From positions 2,939-66,938 of the forward strand of contig CAYISA010000004.1 of assembly GCA_964365955.1 (NCBI GenBank): a stretch of DNA of 64,000 nucleotides. Direction: 5' to 3'. This document shows positions 3,169-14,413 of this stretch, piece after piece (the stretch's first letter is position 1; every line of letters begins with the position of its first letter). The position numbers were made by a program, and so were the translations under genes. This stretch comes from an uncultured Candidatus Saccharibacteria bacterium (GTDB lineage: Bacteria; Patescibacteriota; Minisyncoccia; UBA6257; GWB1-50-10). The notes under the pieces are model-generated. The model had not been told where the DNA came from. It worked only from the letters and a program-made list of their open reading frames with translations, and did no database searches.

Positions 3169-3651
3169 ATGATCCGAATGAAACGTTTTCGCGATCGCCC
3201 GGGGTTCACATTGGTAGAACTCTTGGTGGTCGTTGCCATCATGGCGGTTATCGCAACCGTCGGCTTTTTGGGACTCGCGAATTACCGTTCAGGCAAGAAT
3301 CTGGATTTTACGATAAACGAAATCGCCGCTGCTCTACGTGCTACGCAGGAACGCGCCATCACGCAGGAAAACGGCAAAGCGTGGGGAATCCGTTTTACCA
3401 ACTCCACAAGCGGCGTCCAAAGTTATACGGTTTTTAGCGGAACGGTGTTCGCACCCTCGGGGGTAGATAAAACCTATGGGCTTCGTCGCGGAACCCGCTT
3501 CACCGATCCGGTCGCAAGCTCCACAAAAGATCTTTTTTTTCAGGCGATATCCGGCAAACCGTCCGCATATTTTTCGATAACGCTGAAAGGAGATACCACG
3601 CAGATAAAAAACATTATTGTCGCCACGTCGGGGGTGATTTCGATTCAATGA
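3169..3651 (+). CDS. Type IV prepilin (major pilin candidate)
   Basis: N-terminal class III signal: ...RPG|FTLVELLVVVAIMAVIA with Glu at +5 and a hydrophobic helix. 160 aa. Confidence 0.7.
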   Translation: MIRMKRFRDRPGFTLVELLVVVAIMAVIATVGFLGLANYRSGKNLDFTINEIAAALRATQERAITQENGKAWGIRFTNSTSGVQSYTVFSGTVFAPSGVDKTYGLRRGTRFTDPVASSTKDLFFQAISGKPSAYFSITLKGDTTQIKNIIVATSGVISIQ

Positions 3652-6964: not shown

Positions 6965-9337
6965 ATGCTTTCCACACTTTTTTTCGGCGTGATTTTAGGA
7001 GGCATCTTTGCGGGTGCGTATGCGTGGTTTCGGCGCGCGCAATATCAAAAACTTCTGGAAGGATTGCAGGTGCGTTTGATTTTAGTGCGCCTTCCGCTCG
7101 GAGGAAAAGAAGGCCGCGATCTCATGAAAGAAATCGCATTGACCGAGCAACTGATTGCTGCGCTTGCGGCGTTTAAAAAACCGTTCGTATTCGAAGTGGC
7201 GGTACCGTATGTCGGAGAAGAGATTCATTTTTATATTTCCGTTTCGGAACAGTATGTGGACGCCGCTGTCCGCCAGGTACAGTCCATGTGGGACGATGCC
7301 GATATTCGCAAGGTGGAGGATTACAATATTTTCAATTATCAGGGTTACACGACGGGTGCCTGGCTGAAAGAAAAAGAAAAGTTCGTGTTGCCGATTCGCA
7401 CCTATCAGGAACTCATGAGTGACACTTTTTCAAGTATCTTGGGTGGTTTCGCGCAGACAAAAGAGGTGGGCGAAGGCGCGGCACTGCAGATTGTCGTCCA
7501 GTCCGCAAGCGCGAAGGCAAAAAAAGAAATTGTTGCCTCACTGGGCTTTTTGAAAAAAGGCGGGAAATTAAAAGAAGTGCTTCATGCGGAAAAAATTGGT
7601 GCCTCGGACGTAGTTTCTGCGGCTCTGGCGGGGAAAAAATCGGGGAATGTTCCGGGACCGCAAGAGTCGAAAGTGATCGACGAAATGGCCGTGAAAGCAA
7701 TCGAGACAAAACTGGCAAAACCACTTTTTGACGTTAATGTTCGCATTTTGACCTCTGCGCCGAGTCAGCTACAGGCGGAGTCCTTGCTGGATGGAATTTC
7801 CGCCGGATTTTCGCAGTTCGGCACGACAGGGAGGAACGAGTTTCAGATGACAAAACCGCGCGCGATCAAGAATCTTGTCCGTGCGTTTTCATTTCGCGCG
7901 TTCGACGAAAAACAGAAAATGACGCTTACCAGCGAAGAGCTGGCGAGTATTTTCCATTTTCCAACCGTGTTTACGTCTACTCCGAAAATCAAATATCTCA
8001 AAGCCAAGGAAGCGGCGCCGCCACGCAATCTTCCGACATTCGGGACCCTTCTCGGCGAGAGTTCTTTCCGCGGCGAGTCAAAACCGATTTTCTTGACCGA
8101 CGAAGATCGCCGCCGCCATCTTTACGTTATCGGTCAGACCGGAACCGGCAAGACGACGCTGTTGAAGGGAATGATGCTCGACGACATCCGAAAAGGAAAA
8201 GGCATCGGCGTTATCGATCCGCACGGAGAGTTTGCCGAGTTCGCGCTCGCGAACATTCCGCCCGAACGCGCCAAAGACGTTATCGTGTTCGACCCCGCGG
8301 ATTTTGAGCGGCCGGTGGGACTCAACATGCTCGAATATCATTTTGATCGTCCGGAGGAAAAAACATTTATTGTGAATGACATGCTGGGCATTTTGGACAA
8401 GCTCTATGATTTGCGGCAGACGGGGGGCCCCATGTTCGAGCAGTATATGAGGAATGCTCTCTTGCTGCTCATGGAAGACGCGCCGAATCAGCCTGCGTCG
8501 CTTGTGGAGCTGCCGCGGATTTTTACCGACAGCGCATGGCGCGCAAAAAAACTGGCACGCATCACCAACCCTATTGTGATCGATTTTTGGGAGAAAGAAG
8601 CGACCAAAGCGGGCGGAGAAGCGTCACTTGCGAATATCACGCCTTATGTCACCTCGAAATTCAGCAATTTTATTGCAAATGATTATATGCGCCCGATTAT
8701 CGGCCAGCCGAAATCTGCATTCAATTTTCGCGAAATCATGGATCAGGGGAAAATCCTGATTGTAAGTTTGTCGAAAGGAAAGATCGGCGATGTGAATATG
8801 GGATTACTTGGGATGATTGTGATCTCAAAACTCCTTTTTGCTGCTCTTTCGCGTGTGGATATTCCAAACGAATCGTCCCGAAAAGATTTTTATCTTTACA
8901 TCGACGAGTTCCAGAATTTCGCGACCGATTCCATTTCCGTGATTCTTTCAGAGGCGCGTAAATACCGATTGTCGCTTACCATTGCCCATCAATTCATCGC
9001 CCAGCTTCCCGAAAAAATTCGCGACGCGGTATTCGGGAACGTCGGCTCCGCAATCGCCTTGCGCGTGGGACCCCAGGACGCGGAATTTTTGACCAAACAA
9101 TTTACGCCGGTGTTTAACGAAAGCGATTTATTGAATATCGACAACCTGAACGCGCACGCGCGCATTTTGGTCGACGGCATGGTCGCACCGCCGTTTAATA
9201 TTCGCGTAAATACCGCTGCGTTCTCCGCAAAAGGAGACGTACAAATGGCCGAGCGGCTGCGCAATCTCTCACGCCTTACCTATGGACGTGATCGGGGCGA
9301 AGTTGAAGAAGAAATTCGTCGCAGATTAAGAGAATAA
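6965..9337 (+). CDS. Type IV secretion coupling-protein-like ATPase (VirD4/TraD/TraG-TrwB family, membrane anchored)
   Basis: 790 aa. N-terminal TM helix, Walker A GQTGTGKTT near aa 390, Walker B-like YLYIDEFQNFA, C-terminal TraD/TraG-like region (AHQFIAQLPEKIRDAVFGNVGS). Confidence 0.6.
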   Translation: MLSTLFFGVILGGIFAGAYAWFRRAQYQKLLEGLQVRLILVRLPLGGKEGRDLMKEIALTEQLIAALAAFKKPFVFEVAVPYVGEEIHFYISVSEQYVDAAVRQVQSMWDDADIRKVEDYNIFNYQGYTTGAWLKEKEKFVLPIRTYQELMSDTFSSILGGFAQTKEVGEGAALQIVVQSASAKAKKEIVASLGFLKKGGKLKEVLHAEKIGASDVVSAALAGKKSGNVPGPQESKVIDEMAVKAIETKLAKPLFDVNVRILTSAPSQLQAESLLDGISAGFSQFGTTGRNEFQMTKPRAIKNLVRAFSFRAFDEKQKMTLTSEELASIFHFPTVFTSTPKIKYLKAKEAAPPRNLPTFGTLLGESSFRGESKPIFLTDEDRRRHLYVIGQTGTGKTTLLKGMMLDDIRKGKGIGVIDPHGEFAEFALANIPPERAKDVIVFDPADFERPVGLNMLEYHFDRPEEKTFIVNDMLGILDKLYDLRQTGGPMFEQYMRNALLLLMEDAPNQPASLVELPRIFTDSAWRAKKLARITNPIVIDFWEKEATKAGGEASLANITPYVTSKFSNFIANDYMRPIIGQPKSAFNFREIMDQGKILIVSLSKGKIGDVNMGLLGMIVISKLLFAALSRVDIPNESSRKDFYLYIDEFQNFATDSISVILSEARKYRLSLTIAHQFIAQLPEKIRDAVFGNVGSAIALRVGPQDAEFLTKQFTPVFNESDLLNIDNLNAHARILVDGMVAPPFNIRVNTAAFSAKGDVQMAERLRNLSRLTYGRDRGEVEEEIRRRLRE

Positions 9338-11894: not shown

Positions 11895-11979
11895 TCAAGC
11901 AGAAACCTTACCAACGTCTACTTGGAGCCCCTGACCAAATGATGGGGTGGAGAGTAGACACTATACAGGAGATACAACA

Positions 11980-12570
11980 ATGGCAAAGTCCGATATGGTT
12001 CGCGGAATGCTTTTCGGAGTCGAGTTCCTTACAAACGTCGTGAAAGAAGCAAGAAAGCTTGGCAGAACCGATGAGGAAATTCACGAATGGATGAAAACAG
12101 AATCTGATGGGGCAAAGAAAACCGCACAACTCATCGTTGGCACTGCGAAAAACGTCCTTCGTATTCTCGCAAATCTCTCCCTTGCCGACCGTATCGCCCG
12201 TGGGAAGTACGACTGGGTAAACCCCGACATCACAAAAGGGCATTTCCCCACAAACGTGCCTGTAGACTACTCTCCAGACCACAAACTCTATCACTTTGAT
12301 CGTCCCATCTCCTCCGAAGAGGCGATCAAATGGATGGAAAAGGATGGATTCCGCCCGGGGAACGGAGCAGAGCTTCTTGCCTTTGGGGAAACCTTCCGCG
12401 ATGAGCAGAAGGAGTATCCTATCGTAGCTCTTGGTTCGGTCTGGCAGTACTTGGATGGCCACCGCCGCGTGCTGGTGCTCTGCTCGCATGCTTCGGGGCG
12501 CGGGCTGGGTCTGCTTGGGTTTGAGGGTGGCTGGGATGGCAACTATCGTTTCCTTGCGGTGCGCAAGTAA
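11980..12570 (+). CDS. DGR target protein with C-terminal variable region (C-type-lectin/FGE-like fold predicted)
   Basis: Track ORF 11947..12570. The ATG at 11980 has the strong RBS. The last ~47 codons are the VR. C-terminus ...GGWDGNYRFLAVRK resembles the ...GGSWNN...GFRLxR end of CLec-fold DGR targets. Confidence 0.75.
   Translation: MAKSDMVRGMLFGVEFLTNVVKEARKLGRTDEEIHEWMKTESDGAKKTAQLIVGTAKNVLRILANLSLADRIARGKYDWVNPDITKGHFPTNVPVDYSPDHKLYHFDRPISSEEAIKWMEKDGFRPGNGAELLAFGETFRDEQKEYPIVALGSVWQYLDGHRRVLVLCSHASGRGLGLLGFEGGWDGNYRFLAVRK
12427..12568 (+). repeat. DGR variable repeat (VR)
   Basis: 142-bp near-copy of 12889-13030. It differs at 24 positions, every one an A in the TR. Confidence 0.9.
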
Positions 12571-12626
12571 CTTGGACTTGGGACTTTGATGCTTAGATTT
12601 TTAATCTCTTAGTCCCTTAGATTTTT

Positions 12627-12660
12627 GACCCGTTTCGATTTTTGAAACGGGTCTTTTGTT
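12627..12660 (+). terminator. Hairpin plus U-tract downstream of VR (intrinsic terminator and/or DGR target-recognition hairpin)
   Basis: gacccgtttc-gattttt-gaaacgggtc followed by ttttgtt, about 57 nt after the target-gene stop. Confidence 0.55.
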
Positions 12661-12888
12661 ATAATAATTATGGATAGTAGGTTGGAATGCCTGCGGCTAC
12701 GGTTTCAGGCGACCGAATTCCGAAATTTCTTTGTGCAGAGTGGGTGCGGCTACGGTTTCGCCCAGCGCCACGTGGAAGTTTCTAACCCATAAAGATACTT
12801 GGTGTAGAGTATTAAGGAATTTTTTAGATTCCGAATACGATTCAATCCCAAGAATATTCAAGGGATGGTGGAACGGAAGATACTTTGC

Positions 12889-13030
12889 ACACTTGGTTCG
12901 GTCTGGCAGAACTTGAATGGCAACCGCAACGTGCTGGTGCTCAACTCGAATGATTCGAGGCGCAAGCTGAATCTGAATAGGTTTGAGAATGACTGGAATG
13001 GCAACTATCGTTTCCTTGCGGTGCGAAAGT
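12889..13030 (+). repeat. DGR template repeat (TR)
   Basis: Invariant partner of the VR, A-rich at codon positions (AAC/AAT-rich when translated). Not a protein gene (track ORF 12865..13194 is read-through). Confidence 0.9.
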
Positions 13031-13042
13031 CTCTTTATGTGT

Positions 13043-13450
13043 TCATCCCGCCCTTGGCGGGATTTCTTTCAATGATAACTGTTTTATCCAGCCGCCAAGC
13101 ATTCTTCCAATTTCATCGAGTCGTTCTGAAATCGCTATATATTTTTTACTATCAAATGACTTTGTTTCCCACGCGATTTGAAGGAAGAATTTAGCGAGAT
13201 CAAGTTTTGCTCCGGCGGCACGCACAAAAGAAATGCGGTTTTCGGGTATAGCGTAACTTGCTGAAAAGAGAAGCTCCGTGGTATCAAGTAGGTAAACATC
13301 AATTTTCTCGCCAAGTGTGTACCGTGCGGATTTTTGGAGATGTGGCATCATTTCACGCCACAATTTGTATGCCGCCACTAGTTTTTGGATTATCGATTGA
13401 TTATTTCGTCGGGGGGGGGTGTTCCGGGGTTCTTTAGTATCATGTTTCAA
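13043..13450 (-). CDS. avd: Avd-like accessory variability determinant (four-helix-bundle protein)
   Basis: 135 aa. C-terminal helix ISERLDEIGRMLGGWIKQL and upstream AKFFLQIAWETK match the Avd/four-helix-bundle family pattern. Abuts the TR and is encoded on the opposite strand. Confidence 0.7.
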   Translation of the reverse strand: MKHDTKEPRNTPPRRNNQSIIQKLVAAYKLWREMMPHLQKSARYTLGEKIDVYLLDTTELLFSASYAIPENRISFVRAAGAKLDLAKFFLQIAWETKSFDSKKYIAISERLDEIGRMLGGWIKQLSLKEIPPRAG

Positions 13451-14413
13451 AGAATAACAAGTATAGAAAATTTAGTCGAGGCGTGGGAGGAATTTATAAA
13501 AGGAAAGCGGCACAAAAGAGATGTGCAGGGGTTTTTGCTGCATTTAATGGACAACATTCTTGCGCTTCACCGCGATCTTATGGAGCATGCGTACCGCCAC
13601 GGCGGGTACGCCGCATTTGCTGTTTCTGATCCCAAGCCGCGCAGTATTCATAAGGCTCCGGTTCGTGACAGGCTACTCCACCACGCGGTACATCGCGTGC
13701 TTTATCCCCCTATGAATAAACGGTTTATTGCAGACTCATTTTCTTGTCGAACTGGCAAAGGAACGCATGCCGCTCTCGGCCGCTTTCAGAGGTTTTTCTA
13801 TACAGTAAGTAACAACAATACCAAACAATGCTGGGTTTTGAAGTGCGACATTCGAAGATTTTTTGCGAGCGTTCATCATGAAACACTTTTCAACATTTTA
13901 AAGAAAACCATCCATGATTCTGATGCACTTTGGCTTTTACGCCAGATTATTGGCAGTTTTTATATCGGTGAATATGGCAGGGGACTTCCCCTTGGCAATC
14001 TTACCTCGCAACTCTTTGCGAATGTATATATGAACGAATTTGATCGGTATGTAAAGCACACGTTGAAAATAAAACACTATATTCGATATGCAGATGATTT
14101 TGTCATTTTTTCTAACGATCGCGAAGAACTGGGACAGATTATCAAACCCATTAGAGAATTTTTATGCGACGCGCTTTCCTTACAACTCCATGAAGATAAA
14201 GTTGTGATAGAGACCATCGGTTCCGGTATTGATTTTTTGGGATGGGTGCATTTTCCGGATCATAGGGTGTTGCGCACATCAACAAAACGAAGGATGTTAA
14301 GGAAATTGCAGGCAAGGGGAAATAATACTGCCACCATCGCATCTTATTTAGGACTTTTGAAGCATGGGAACACATGTAAACTCGAGGAGGAAATTTCGAA
14401 TAGAAATTGGTAG
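13442..14413 (+). CDS. DGR-type reverse transcriptase
   Basis: RT motifs present: motif 4 LGNLTSQ (DGR hallmark [I/L]GxxxSQ rather than the group II QGxxxSP) and YADDFVIF. About 320 aa, no maturase or endonuclease domain. Start placed at the Met of MFQRITS (track start 13385). Confidence 0.85.
   Translation: MFQRITSIENLVEAWEEFIKGKRHKRDVQGFLLHLMDNILALHRDLMEHAYRHGGYAAFAVSDPKPRSIHKAPVRDRLLHHAVHRVLYPPMNKRFIADSFSCRTGKGTHAALGRFQRFFYTVSNNNTKQCWVLKCDIRRFFASVHHETLFNILKKTIHDSDALWLLRQIIGSFYIGEYGRGLPLGNLTSQLFANVYMNEFDRYVKHTLKIKHYIRYADDFVIFSNDREELGQIIKPIREFLCDALSLQLHEDKVVIETIGSGIDFLGWVHFPDHRVLRTSTKRRMLRKLQARGNNTATIASYLGLLKHGNTCKLEEEISNRNW

Follow-up and report, generated by a model that had tools for sequence, protein, structure and literature searches.

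The 64,000-nucleotide (nt) window analysed here, the whole of a stretch of contig CAYISA010000004.1 (assembly GCA_964365955.1) from an uncultured Candidatus Saccharibacteria bacterium, contains a diversity-generating retroelement (DGR), in which a variable repeat (VR) at the end of a target gene is followed by a template repeat (TR), an avd gene and a gene for a reverse transcriptase (RT). The element stands among housekeeping genes (HIT/GalT-like, triose-phosphate isomerase), and at the level of genes and repeats it consists of the following parts:

11947 to 12570, plus strand: target (variable-protein) gene, a 207-amino-acid (aa) open reading frame (ORF) from GTG 11947 with the VR at its C-terminal end
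12430 to 12568, plus strand: VR, with 22 of 22 mismatches on TR adenines
12892 to 13030, plus strand: TR, with 34 adenines and 11 AAY codons, starting 2 nt past RNA helix P6 and ending at the start of RNA helix PL (both described below)
13043 to 13450, minus strand: avd (accessory variability determinant), 135 aa, between TR and RT
13442 to 14413, plus strand: DGR reverse transcriptase of 323 aa, counted from ATG 13442 (TTG 13385 in the mechanical ORF)

An ungapped self-alignment of the window set VR 12427-12568 against TR 12889-13030 with 118 of 142 positions identical and 24 mismatches, and an independent repeat search found the same pair (repeat family D1, spacing 462). A preliminary description of this DNA had reported, from a hand alignment at offset 462, a 142-bp pair whose 24 differences all fall on TR adenines, and the exact alignment bore this out: a TR adenine underlies every one of the 24 mismatches, with the VR base being G in 14 cases, C in six and T in four, while none of the 106 TR positions occupied by C, G or T differs from the VR. 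When tested against TR base composition (36 adenines in 142 nt), this concentration gave a hypergeometric P of 1.3e-18. The limits of the pair had probably been drawn slightly too wide, and the 5' end of the TR lies more likely at 12892 than at 12889. Since the mismatches at 12427 and 12429 form the homology edge and adjoin non-A mismatches just upstream (12424-12426), and since TR bases 12889-12890 are part of the conserved RNA helix P6, we use a conservative core, 12430-12568 against 12892-13030, in which 22 of 22 mismatches fall on adenines (34 A among 139 TR bases; P = 2.5e-17).

The VR is in frame with the ORF at 11947-12570, reaches its stop codon and covers the last 46 codons of the target. 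Over the 142-nt range, the mutated adenines occupy codon position 1 in 14 cases, position 2 in eight and position 3 in two, so that 22 of the 24 changes hit the first two positions; of the two third-position changes, one falls on the boundary base and one is silent (CGA->CGC). Among the 11 AAY codons of the TR, ten are altered in the VR, and the protein variants encodable by the TR number about 10^19. The asparagine-rich translation of the TR noticed previously (NLNGNRN...) could be traced to a mechanical 109-aa ORF (12865-13194) that spans the TR, the hairpin behind it and the antisense 3' end of avd, and is almost certainly not a gene. As for the 3' end of the pair, its near-invariance is real, with a single A->C difference. 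TR 13008-13025 is an 18-nt GC-rich stretch without any adenine and therefore cannot vary, which accounts for the invariance without the role in initiation of mutagenic homing (IMH) that had been suggested for this end. The last TR adenine that differs from the VR is 13026, 4 nt from the TR end. No further VR of this TR was found in the window on either strand.

The target gene probably starts at ATG 11980 (MAKSDMV...), where its homologues begin. Its product gave no match in Pfam or NCBIfam and belongs to a family of Patescibacteria proteins of about 200 aa (245 homology-search hits), whose variable alignment columns coincide with the A-codons of the TR. In an AlphaFold2 model (predicted local distance difference test score 90.6), three N-terminal helices precede a C-terminal domain with a predicted C-type-lectin fold, the C-terminal strands of which would be encoded by the VR; on this predicted fold, the target has the kind of variation-tolerant scaffold (C-type lectin or Ig fold) expected of a DGR target. 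The avd product matched Pfam PF22296 bAvd (E 2e-11, 44.7 bits, cutoff 40) and, over the full length of the model, NCBIfam NF033474 DivGenRetAVD (E 2.7e-17; 63 bits, under the cutoff of 80). The RT, which begins 412 nt downstream of the TR, matched Pfam RVT_1 (E 6e-24), and its best match in the PDB was the BPP-1 bRT 8ub7 (E 9.3e-47, the alignment starting at residue 1 if the RT is read from its ATG), whereas group II intron- and retron-type RTs reached E 2e-20 or weaker. It carries LGNLTSQ at residue 184, a DGR-type LGxxxSQ motif, and YADD at 216. Homologues of the RT at E<=1e-20 number at least 8000. Among the best 120, identity is about 60-65% except in two that are closer, and where a source is named it is a Patescibacteria or unclassified-bacterium metagenome-assembled genome (MAG). 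An identical RT protein (P0121) is on record under the name of a Patescibacteria group bacterium MAG. Judged by these matches, the RT belongs to the DGR clade.

The avd gene (start 13450, minus strand) and the RT gene (ATG 13442, plus strand) stand head to head with a 9-nt overlap of their starts, and the last avd codons overlap the hairpin that follows the TR; each of the two must therefore be transcribed from a promoter within the other or from one that precedes the TR. The N-terminal coding region of avd contains a run of nine G (13411-13419), which could be a slippage site or the site of an assembly error.

We considered whether the repeats could be an ordinary segmental duplication or gene-conversion tract with point mutations, lying by chance near an unrelated RT such as that of a group II intron or retron. 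Two details can be cited in its favour, namely that the best-scoring NCBIfam model for the RT is group_II_RT_mat (128 bits, far under its cutoff of 300) and that the TR falls within the mechanical 109-aa ORF. It is contradicted by the exclusive placement of the 22-24 differences on adenines (0 of 106 elsewhere; P<=2.5e-17), by the recurrence of the same bias in 29 other loci, by an RT that is nearest to bRT, has the LGxxxSQ motif and lies next to Avd, and by Rfam, in which no group II intron or retron RNA was found. We regard this explanation as effectively refuted. The DGR assignment made in the preliminary description thus gains support from the A-only mismatches, the DGR-type RT, the Avd homologue, the lectin-fold target and the related loci.

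One genome per species was scanned for the target family, and 220 loci were found to encode it, 80 of which were fetched. The target is followed by RT and Avd genes in 33 of the 80, and TR/VR pairs with A-dominated mismatches are present in 29 related loci. The avd gene lies antisense between target/TR and RT in all 33 RT-bearing loci and also in four loci picked through the RT alone (L083-L086). All named organisms among the fitting loci are MAGs of Patescibacteria, the candidate phyla radiation (CPR), and a 2015 Kuenenbacteria groundwater genome (L020) belongs to the same family as the window. In the other target-family loci the adjacent RT is absent or fragmentary, and roughly every second target homologue lacks a nearby RT. 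RT fragments adjoin the targets of L006, L035, L062 and L071, and two target paralogues stand in tandem in L012, L014, L040, L059 and L067, which indicates that this DGR family undergoes frequent loss and duplication.

The closest relative (L001/L003; GCA_030018585.1, JASEHZ010000008.1; L001 4600-5076) is syntenic with the window, sharing a DUF87 ATPase, GtrA, GT2, target, triose-phosphate isomerase, FtsW and YceG. It lacks avd, the RT and most of the TR, of which about 25 nt are left, and it retains a target gene with a fixed VR, so that this locus shows a DGR partway through decay. Between the window and L001, the noncoding stretch from VR to TR is better conserved than the target protein itself (60% amino-acid identity), and for this reason we compared the stretch across loci.

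Given such decay, the window element might likewise be a dead DGR, a relic with a VR fixed long ago. The loss of most of the TR, avd and RT from L001/L003, the RT fragments in four loci, the many target homologues without a nearby RT and the run of nine G inside avd would all suit a relic. In the window, though, the RT and avd ORFs are full length, the catalytic motifs of the RT are present, all helices of the RNA described below are intact (100.8 bits with the covariance model R1), and there is zero drift between TR and VR at the 106 non-A positions, a point in favour of recent retrohoming, as measured against the rate of point mutation. We therefore consider a relic improbable and the DGR of the window probably active, as far as its sequence allows this to be judged.

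The comparison of the stretch between VR and TR brought out a set of RNA features, listed here together with the elements that precede and follow them.

12580 to 12616, plus strand: imperfect inverted repeat, 12 nt past the VR, found by DNA folding, with short stems split by T.T mismatches and with CTTGG-type boxes
12627 to 12660, plus strand: terminator-like hairpin of the target gene with a T-tract (12 pairs, 6 GC; tail TTTTGTTATA)
12660 to 12665, plus strand: TATAAT, a -10-like box of the putative TR-RNA promoter, 6 nt before the conserved RNA 5' end
12672 to 12890, plus strand: structured 5' domain (leader) of the TR RNA, from RNAalifold, pair counts and covariance model R1
12672-74 with 12719-21, plus strand: helix P1 of the leader
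12680-82 with 12712-14, plus strand: helix P2 of the leader
12689-97 with 12702-10, plus strand: helix P3 of the leader
12732-35 with 12769-72, plus strand: helix P4 of the leader
12741-50 with 12755-64, plus strand: helix P5 of the leader
12788 to 12795, plus strand: 5' strand of helix PL, CATAAAGA, paired with 13032-13039
12797, plus strand: near-invariant A, present in 44 of 45 instances
12799 to 12802, plus strand: invariant TTGG, each position conserved in 43-45 of 45 instances
12802-13 with 12879-90, plus strand: helix P6, with 97% of cells paired and 10 of 12 pairs compensatory
12817-19 with 12829-31, plus strand: helix P7 of the leader
12845-53 with 12858-66, plus strand: helix P8 of the leader
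13032 to 13039, plus strand: linker TCTTTATG, the 3' strand of PL, starting 2 nt past the homology end at 13030 and paired with 12788-12795
13045 to 13070, plus strand: GC-rich hairpin ATCCCGCC-CTT-GGCGGGAT followed by TTCTTTC, the putative intrinsic terminator of the TR RNA

The simplest reading of this arrangement is that the TR lies in a discrete RNA gene of about 400 nt, made up of a -10-like box, a leader of about 215 nt, the TR, a linker of 8-10 nt and a terminator-like hairpin. Upstream, the hairpin at 12627-12660 would close the target gene and shows compensatory differences in the syntenic relative L001. The conserved RNA begins at 12672 with GGATAGTAGG, and at some loci with GACAGATG; a TAnAAT-like box occurs about 6-9 nt before this start in most related loci and is kept in L001. 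Downstream, a hairpin of at least -7 kcal/mol in strength with a T-rich tail was found within about 16 nt past the TR in 26 of 30 loci, and its structure is kept across loci with stem sequences that are unrelated. The sequence past this hairpin is avd coding sequence on the other strand throughout. The same hairpin (13045-13070) may in addition correspond to what Handa et al. (bioRxiv 10.1101/2023.10.23.563531) call the 'Avd-binding stem-loop'. An RNA 3' end that snaps back to prime, with the tail CUUUC pairing to GAAAG at the TR end, was considered and rejected, as the complementarity (judged by eye) is inconsistent across loci.

The structure of the leader is well supported. RNAalifold, applied to 21 sequences, returned 49 leader pairs with compensatory changes in 38. 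In a full-length alignment of 30 loci with 60 named pairs, 91.3% of cells are paired and 54 of the 60 pairs change on both sides; after column shuffling 71.4% of cells are paired, and sliding the partner by 1-3 columns leaves 42-49%. None of 500 shuffles reached the observed 91.3%, a figure to be read as strong support and not as a probability, because the shuffle control ignores phylogeny. Across 45 instances of the RNA, 96.2% of cells are paired. The minimum-energy fold of the window RNA, taken as a single sequence, recovers P1-P8, PL and the terminal hairpin. At gathering thresholds Rfam reported only three tRNAs in the whole window, and a search of 12560-13460 with Rfam 15 at E<=10 gave weak small-RNA-like matches on the terminators only, leaving the leader (12672-12890) unmatched. 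Within the leader, a direct repeat (12685-12706 and 12738-12759) corresponds to the hairpins P3 and P5; their stems covary, the loop consensus CGGYUAMGGYU is common to both, and the two may be twin protein-binding sites.

Two of the helices bracket the TR. The 3' strand of P6 ends 2 nt before the start of VR/TR homology at 12892, and the 3' strand of PL begins 2 nt past the homology end, so that the positions of P6 and PL, as predicted from the alignments, match the limits of VR/TR homology to the nucleotide. Both helices draw on one upstream strand, in which PL comes first, A12797 and TTGG follow, and P6 comes last, pairing with the 12 nt just 5' of the TR. PL covaries among loci (ATGAAGC/GCTTCAT in L013, ACAAAAC/GTTTTGT in L018, ATGATGAAC/GTTCAATCAT in L059), and cognate PL duplexes have a mean energy of -7.5 kcal/mol versus -3.4 kcal/mol for non-cognate ones, with none of 20,000 permutations as good (p<=5e-5). 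A12797 and U13030 are paired in 30 of 30 loci, as A-U in 29 and as C-G in one, and the next pair, 12798:13029, is not maintained. The VR-flank junction AAGTAACTTGG resembles the RNA junction AAGATACTTGG, but this likeness was rejected, since beyond (A)CTTGG it fails in other loci.

The covariance model R1, built on 12784-12892, hit the 64-kb window once, with a score of 100.8 bits that lies within the family range. It matched ten further sites in loci outside the seed and, with 67-101 bits, all four of the loci picked through the RT alone; the loci outside the seed in which it finds the RNA number 14. These four have the gene order and strands of the window and targets that cannot be aligned with the window target (13-27% identity). 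In each, the TR begins 1-8 nt past the R1 hit, TR/VR mismatches fall on adenines in 15 of 16, 24 of 24, 16 of 16 and 16 of 16 cases, respectively, the linker and the upstream strand form a duplex of -5.5 to -11 kcal/mol, and a hairpin comes next, with a clear T-tract behind three of the four hairpins. Because R1, the TR and the PL pairing recur in four loci with unrelated targets, the leader RNA, to judge from these sequences, goes with the RT/Avd clade rather than with any single target family.

Among the remaining loci, L001 keeps the whole leader (R1 72 bits). L073 failed the ungapped TR scan, yet R1 matches just upstream of the predicted TR, so that this locus probably has a more diverged TR. 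In three loci with a target-(avd)-RT arrangement (L034, L037 and L066), no TR turned up when both strands of the complete locus were scanned at >=65% identity, and R1 matched nowhere in the roughly 4 kb to each side; these elements are either defective or have a remote TR. L023 has two leader copies (1801-1909 and 3232-3339), one on each side of the target gene, which suggests two TR genes or the remnant of a second element.

The leader could also be an independent small RNA or a cis-regulatory leader that merely neighbours the DGR. Its own promoter-like box, its complex structure and its survival in L001 after loss of the RT are what one would expect of such an RNA. Most of the checkable instances among the 45 nevertheless run into a TR, at a distance of 1-8 nt in four measured loci, and those not continuous with a TR are remnants such as L001 or hits cut by contig ends. 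Moreover, two strands of the leader pair with the flanks of the TR, the leader follows the RT/Avd clade across unrelated target families, and it occurs once in the 64-kb window and matches no Rfam family. We hold an independent RNA to be very improbable.

How such an RNA might work can be framed by the DGR of BPP-1, in which nucleotides 47-56 of the spacer (Sp) pair with TR117-129, A56 primes and G117 is copied first; two nt further on, Sp59-70 pairs with avd369-379, the avd 3' end just upstream of the TR, to form the 'stop' duplex (Handa et al.). Following the established DGR mechanism, the TR of the window would be transcribed, the RT-Avd complex would copy it into cDNA, misincorporating opposite adenines, and the mutagenised cDNA would replace the VR. 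PL would be the counterpart of the BPP-1 spacer:TR template-primer duplex, positioning the 3' edge of the template; A12797 would be the candidate priming nucleotide, corresponding to Sp A56; and P6 would act like the 'stop' duplex. Synthesis of the cDNA would accordingly begin near G13029 and finish near 12891; these ends equal the limits of VR/TR homology and also fit the position of the last differing adenine, 13026. By this analogy we infer for the leader a role in priming and termination, and the order of elements in the window RNA looks like a permutation of the BPP-1 order that resembles a retron.

A different possibility is that the element works as BPP-1 does, with spacer and priming A located downstream, in the antisense-avd transcript, and with a leader that serves to stabilise the transcript, to regulate TR/RT expression or to bind another factor. 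This has the merit of being the published model, which Handa et al. have proposed for CPR DGRs as well; a stem-loop directly past the TR resembles the 'Avd-binding stem-loop', and the RT, having no obvious promoter of its own, could rely on read-through. The pairing evidence points the other way. The segment 5' of the TR pairs upstream and not downstream (P6), the linker on the 3' side of the TR has its partner in the adjoining upstream strand, and a T-tract stands behind the downstream hairpin in 26 of 30 loci, beyond which lies avd coding sequence on the other strand. A structured spacer and stop partner downstream of the TR, as in BPP-1, were accordingly not what the window showed, the P6 partner being upstream. 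The CPR claim of Handa et al. was based on single-sequence MxFold2 predictions in which 40 nt upstream were joined to 100 nt downstream of the TR, and our reading of the stop duplex differs from theirs in that covariation would put the partner upstream in this clade. We thus find BPP-1-like working of the window element rather unlikely, although it retains appreciable weight.

Taken together, we read the locus as a complete, apparently functional DGR in a Patescibacteria (CPR) chromosome, with the TR-(avd)-RT layout typical of the group and with a TR RNA whose scaffold lies upstream of the template, a reading to which we assign a probability of roughly 85%. Several points weigh against it. VR and TR lack the IMH/IMH* difference by which directionality could be explained. 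The helix PL is short, consists largely of A and U and has only about 84% of cells paired in its core of seven pairs; in one subclade (L028, L039, L070 and L078) it is weak. Handa et al. report CPR DGRs with a BPP-1-like downstream stem-loop and an upstream/downstream stop duplex. Since R1, with filters off, gave no hit on the BPP-1 DGR region, the analogy to BPP-1 is one of topology and not of detectable homology. The promoter, the terminator, the priming nucleotide and the cDNA ends are features that we infer from sequence, and expression of the RT may need read-through past the hairpin into antisense avd. More tentative is the extension to the group as a whole, namely that the large CPR TR-(avd)-RT clade, with its 8000 or more RT homologues, uses a permuted, retron-like RNA; the counterpart of the BPP-1 spacer, including primer and stop strands and stem-loops for protein binding, would stand 5' of the template in a self-contained gene of about 400 nt that has its own promoter and terminator, and the equivalents of A12797 would be the priming or branch nucleotides; we place this at somewhat less than an even chance.

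Two further features of the locus deserve description. The imperfect inverted repeat at 12580-12616, unusual in its T.T-segmented form, is a candidate equivalent of the hairpin or cruciform that follows the VR in other DGRs, and similarly segmented hairpins occur after the VR in most related loci. Same-strand CTTGG-like boxes crowd 12571-12625 and the 70 nt after the VR in L005-L079 and L084, and they fold into a long hairpin with 5-6-bp stems split by T.T (U.U) mismatches. The motif CYTKG occurs 4.5 times per 70 nt after VRs, compared with a background of 0.36, and its reverse complement occurs 0.07 times; because of this asymmetry the element is strand-specific, unlike a plain palindrome. 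CTTGG is also invariant at the RNA junction (12798-12802). Farther upstream of the DGR, 6965-9337 encodes a 790-aa ATPase, and the syntenic gene in L001 carries DUF8128, with DUF87 and T4SS-DNA_transf as weak hits. This ATPase is probably unrelated to the DGR, its synteny being kept with a relative that lacks one.

The window DGR is one more example of a type abundant in CPR, and it would diversify a small protein with a predicted lectin fold. Its wider interest lies in the RNA. BPP-1 is the only DGR whose reverse transcription is structurally understood, and the RNA that primes, guides and stops it lies downstream of the template, whereas covariation indicates that the commonest DGR type of ultra-small bacteria puts the equivalent strands upstream. 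If this is true, it would represent a second natural solution to cis-priming in DGRs, to our knowledge not described before, and it would account for how avd can lie antisense between TR and RT. The permutation also offers a naturally occurring test of the model of cis-priming and stop duplex. In practical terms, the analysis offers those who would reconstitute a CPR DGR a defined minimal RNA of about 400 nt and a specific candidate for the priming nucleotide, and it yields a covariance model that finds TRs directly, orphan or decayed ones included, without recourse to a VR. It also warns that RNA elements can be mis-assigned if a search stops 40 nt before and 100 nt after a TR.

Compared with known systems, the window element most closely resembles the CPR DGRs of architecture B3, defined as TR-(avd)-RT with a reverse-strand avd, which is reported for 90% of a CPR set based on Paul et al. 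2017 (Nat Microbiol 2:17045) and as nearly absent elsewhere (Wu et al. 2018, NAR 46:11, PMC5758913). The Kuenenbacteria genome of L020 is of the sort on which this set draws. The window has this architecture exactly (TR 12892-13030, plus strand; avd 13043-13450, minus strand; RT 13442-14413, plus strand), and it shares with these DGRs the gene order and strands, the host group and a small target of otherwise unknown function, without any difference in gene content. Given the frequency of B3 in CPR, the element is an ordinary CPR DGR at the gene level. We found no description in the literature of a discrete TR-RNA gene with a leader of about 215 nt, in a search that did not cover Paul et al. 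2017. Structured RNAs beside RT genes, as the window leader is, have been described as the motifs RT-1 to RT-19, some of which were suggested to be parts of DGRs or retrons (Weinberg et al. 2017, PMC5737381); in contrast to these, no Rfam 15 family is credible over 12672-12890, even at E=10.

With BPP-1 (PDB 8ub7 series) the window shares a homologous RT (E 9e-47), Avd, adenine-specific mutagenesis and a lectin-fold target with a C-terminal VR. The RNAs are alike in that a single strand forms two adjacent duplexes, one at the 3' edge of the template and one with its 5' flank, in the same 5'-to-3' order and with a conserved A between them. They differ in the position of this strand: in the window it is found about 90 nt upstream of the TR, and in BPP-1 (Sp 47-70) it is part of the 144-nt spacer that separates the TR from brt downstream. 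The gap between the A and the second duplex is 4 nt in the window and 2 nt in BPP-1. In the order mtd-avd-TR-Sp-brt, avd is upstream and on the same strand, whereas in the window it is antisense and the TR is followed only by the linker and the hairpin. Differences extend to the repeat after the VR, long and segmented by T.T mismatches in the window and a short GC hairpin in BPP-1, and to the IMH/IMH* differences, which the window VR/TR pair lacks.

In retron non-coding RNAs of the Ec86 type, the elements follow the order a2, branching G, msr stem-loops, msd template and a1. The window RNA presents a comparable succession of closing strand, putative branch nucleotide, stem-loops, template and closing strand, and its RT would likewise begin copying at the template base beside the closing helix. 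Unlike in retrons, the candidate branch base is an A instead of a G, with branching itself being a prediction, and an extra 115-nt domain (P1-P5) precedes the closing helix. The window RT, too, belongs with the DGR clade, retron models scoring far lower. A second helix, P6, brackets the 5' end of the template, and the product would serve retrohoming into the VR rather than persist as multicopy single-stranded DNA (msDNA).

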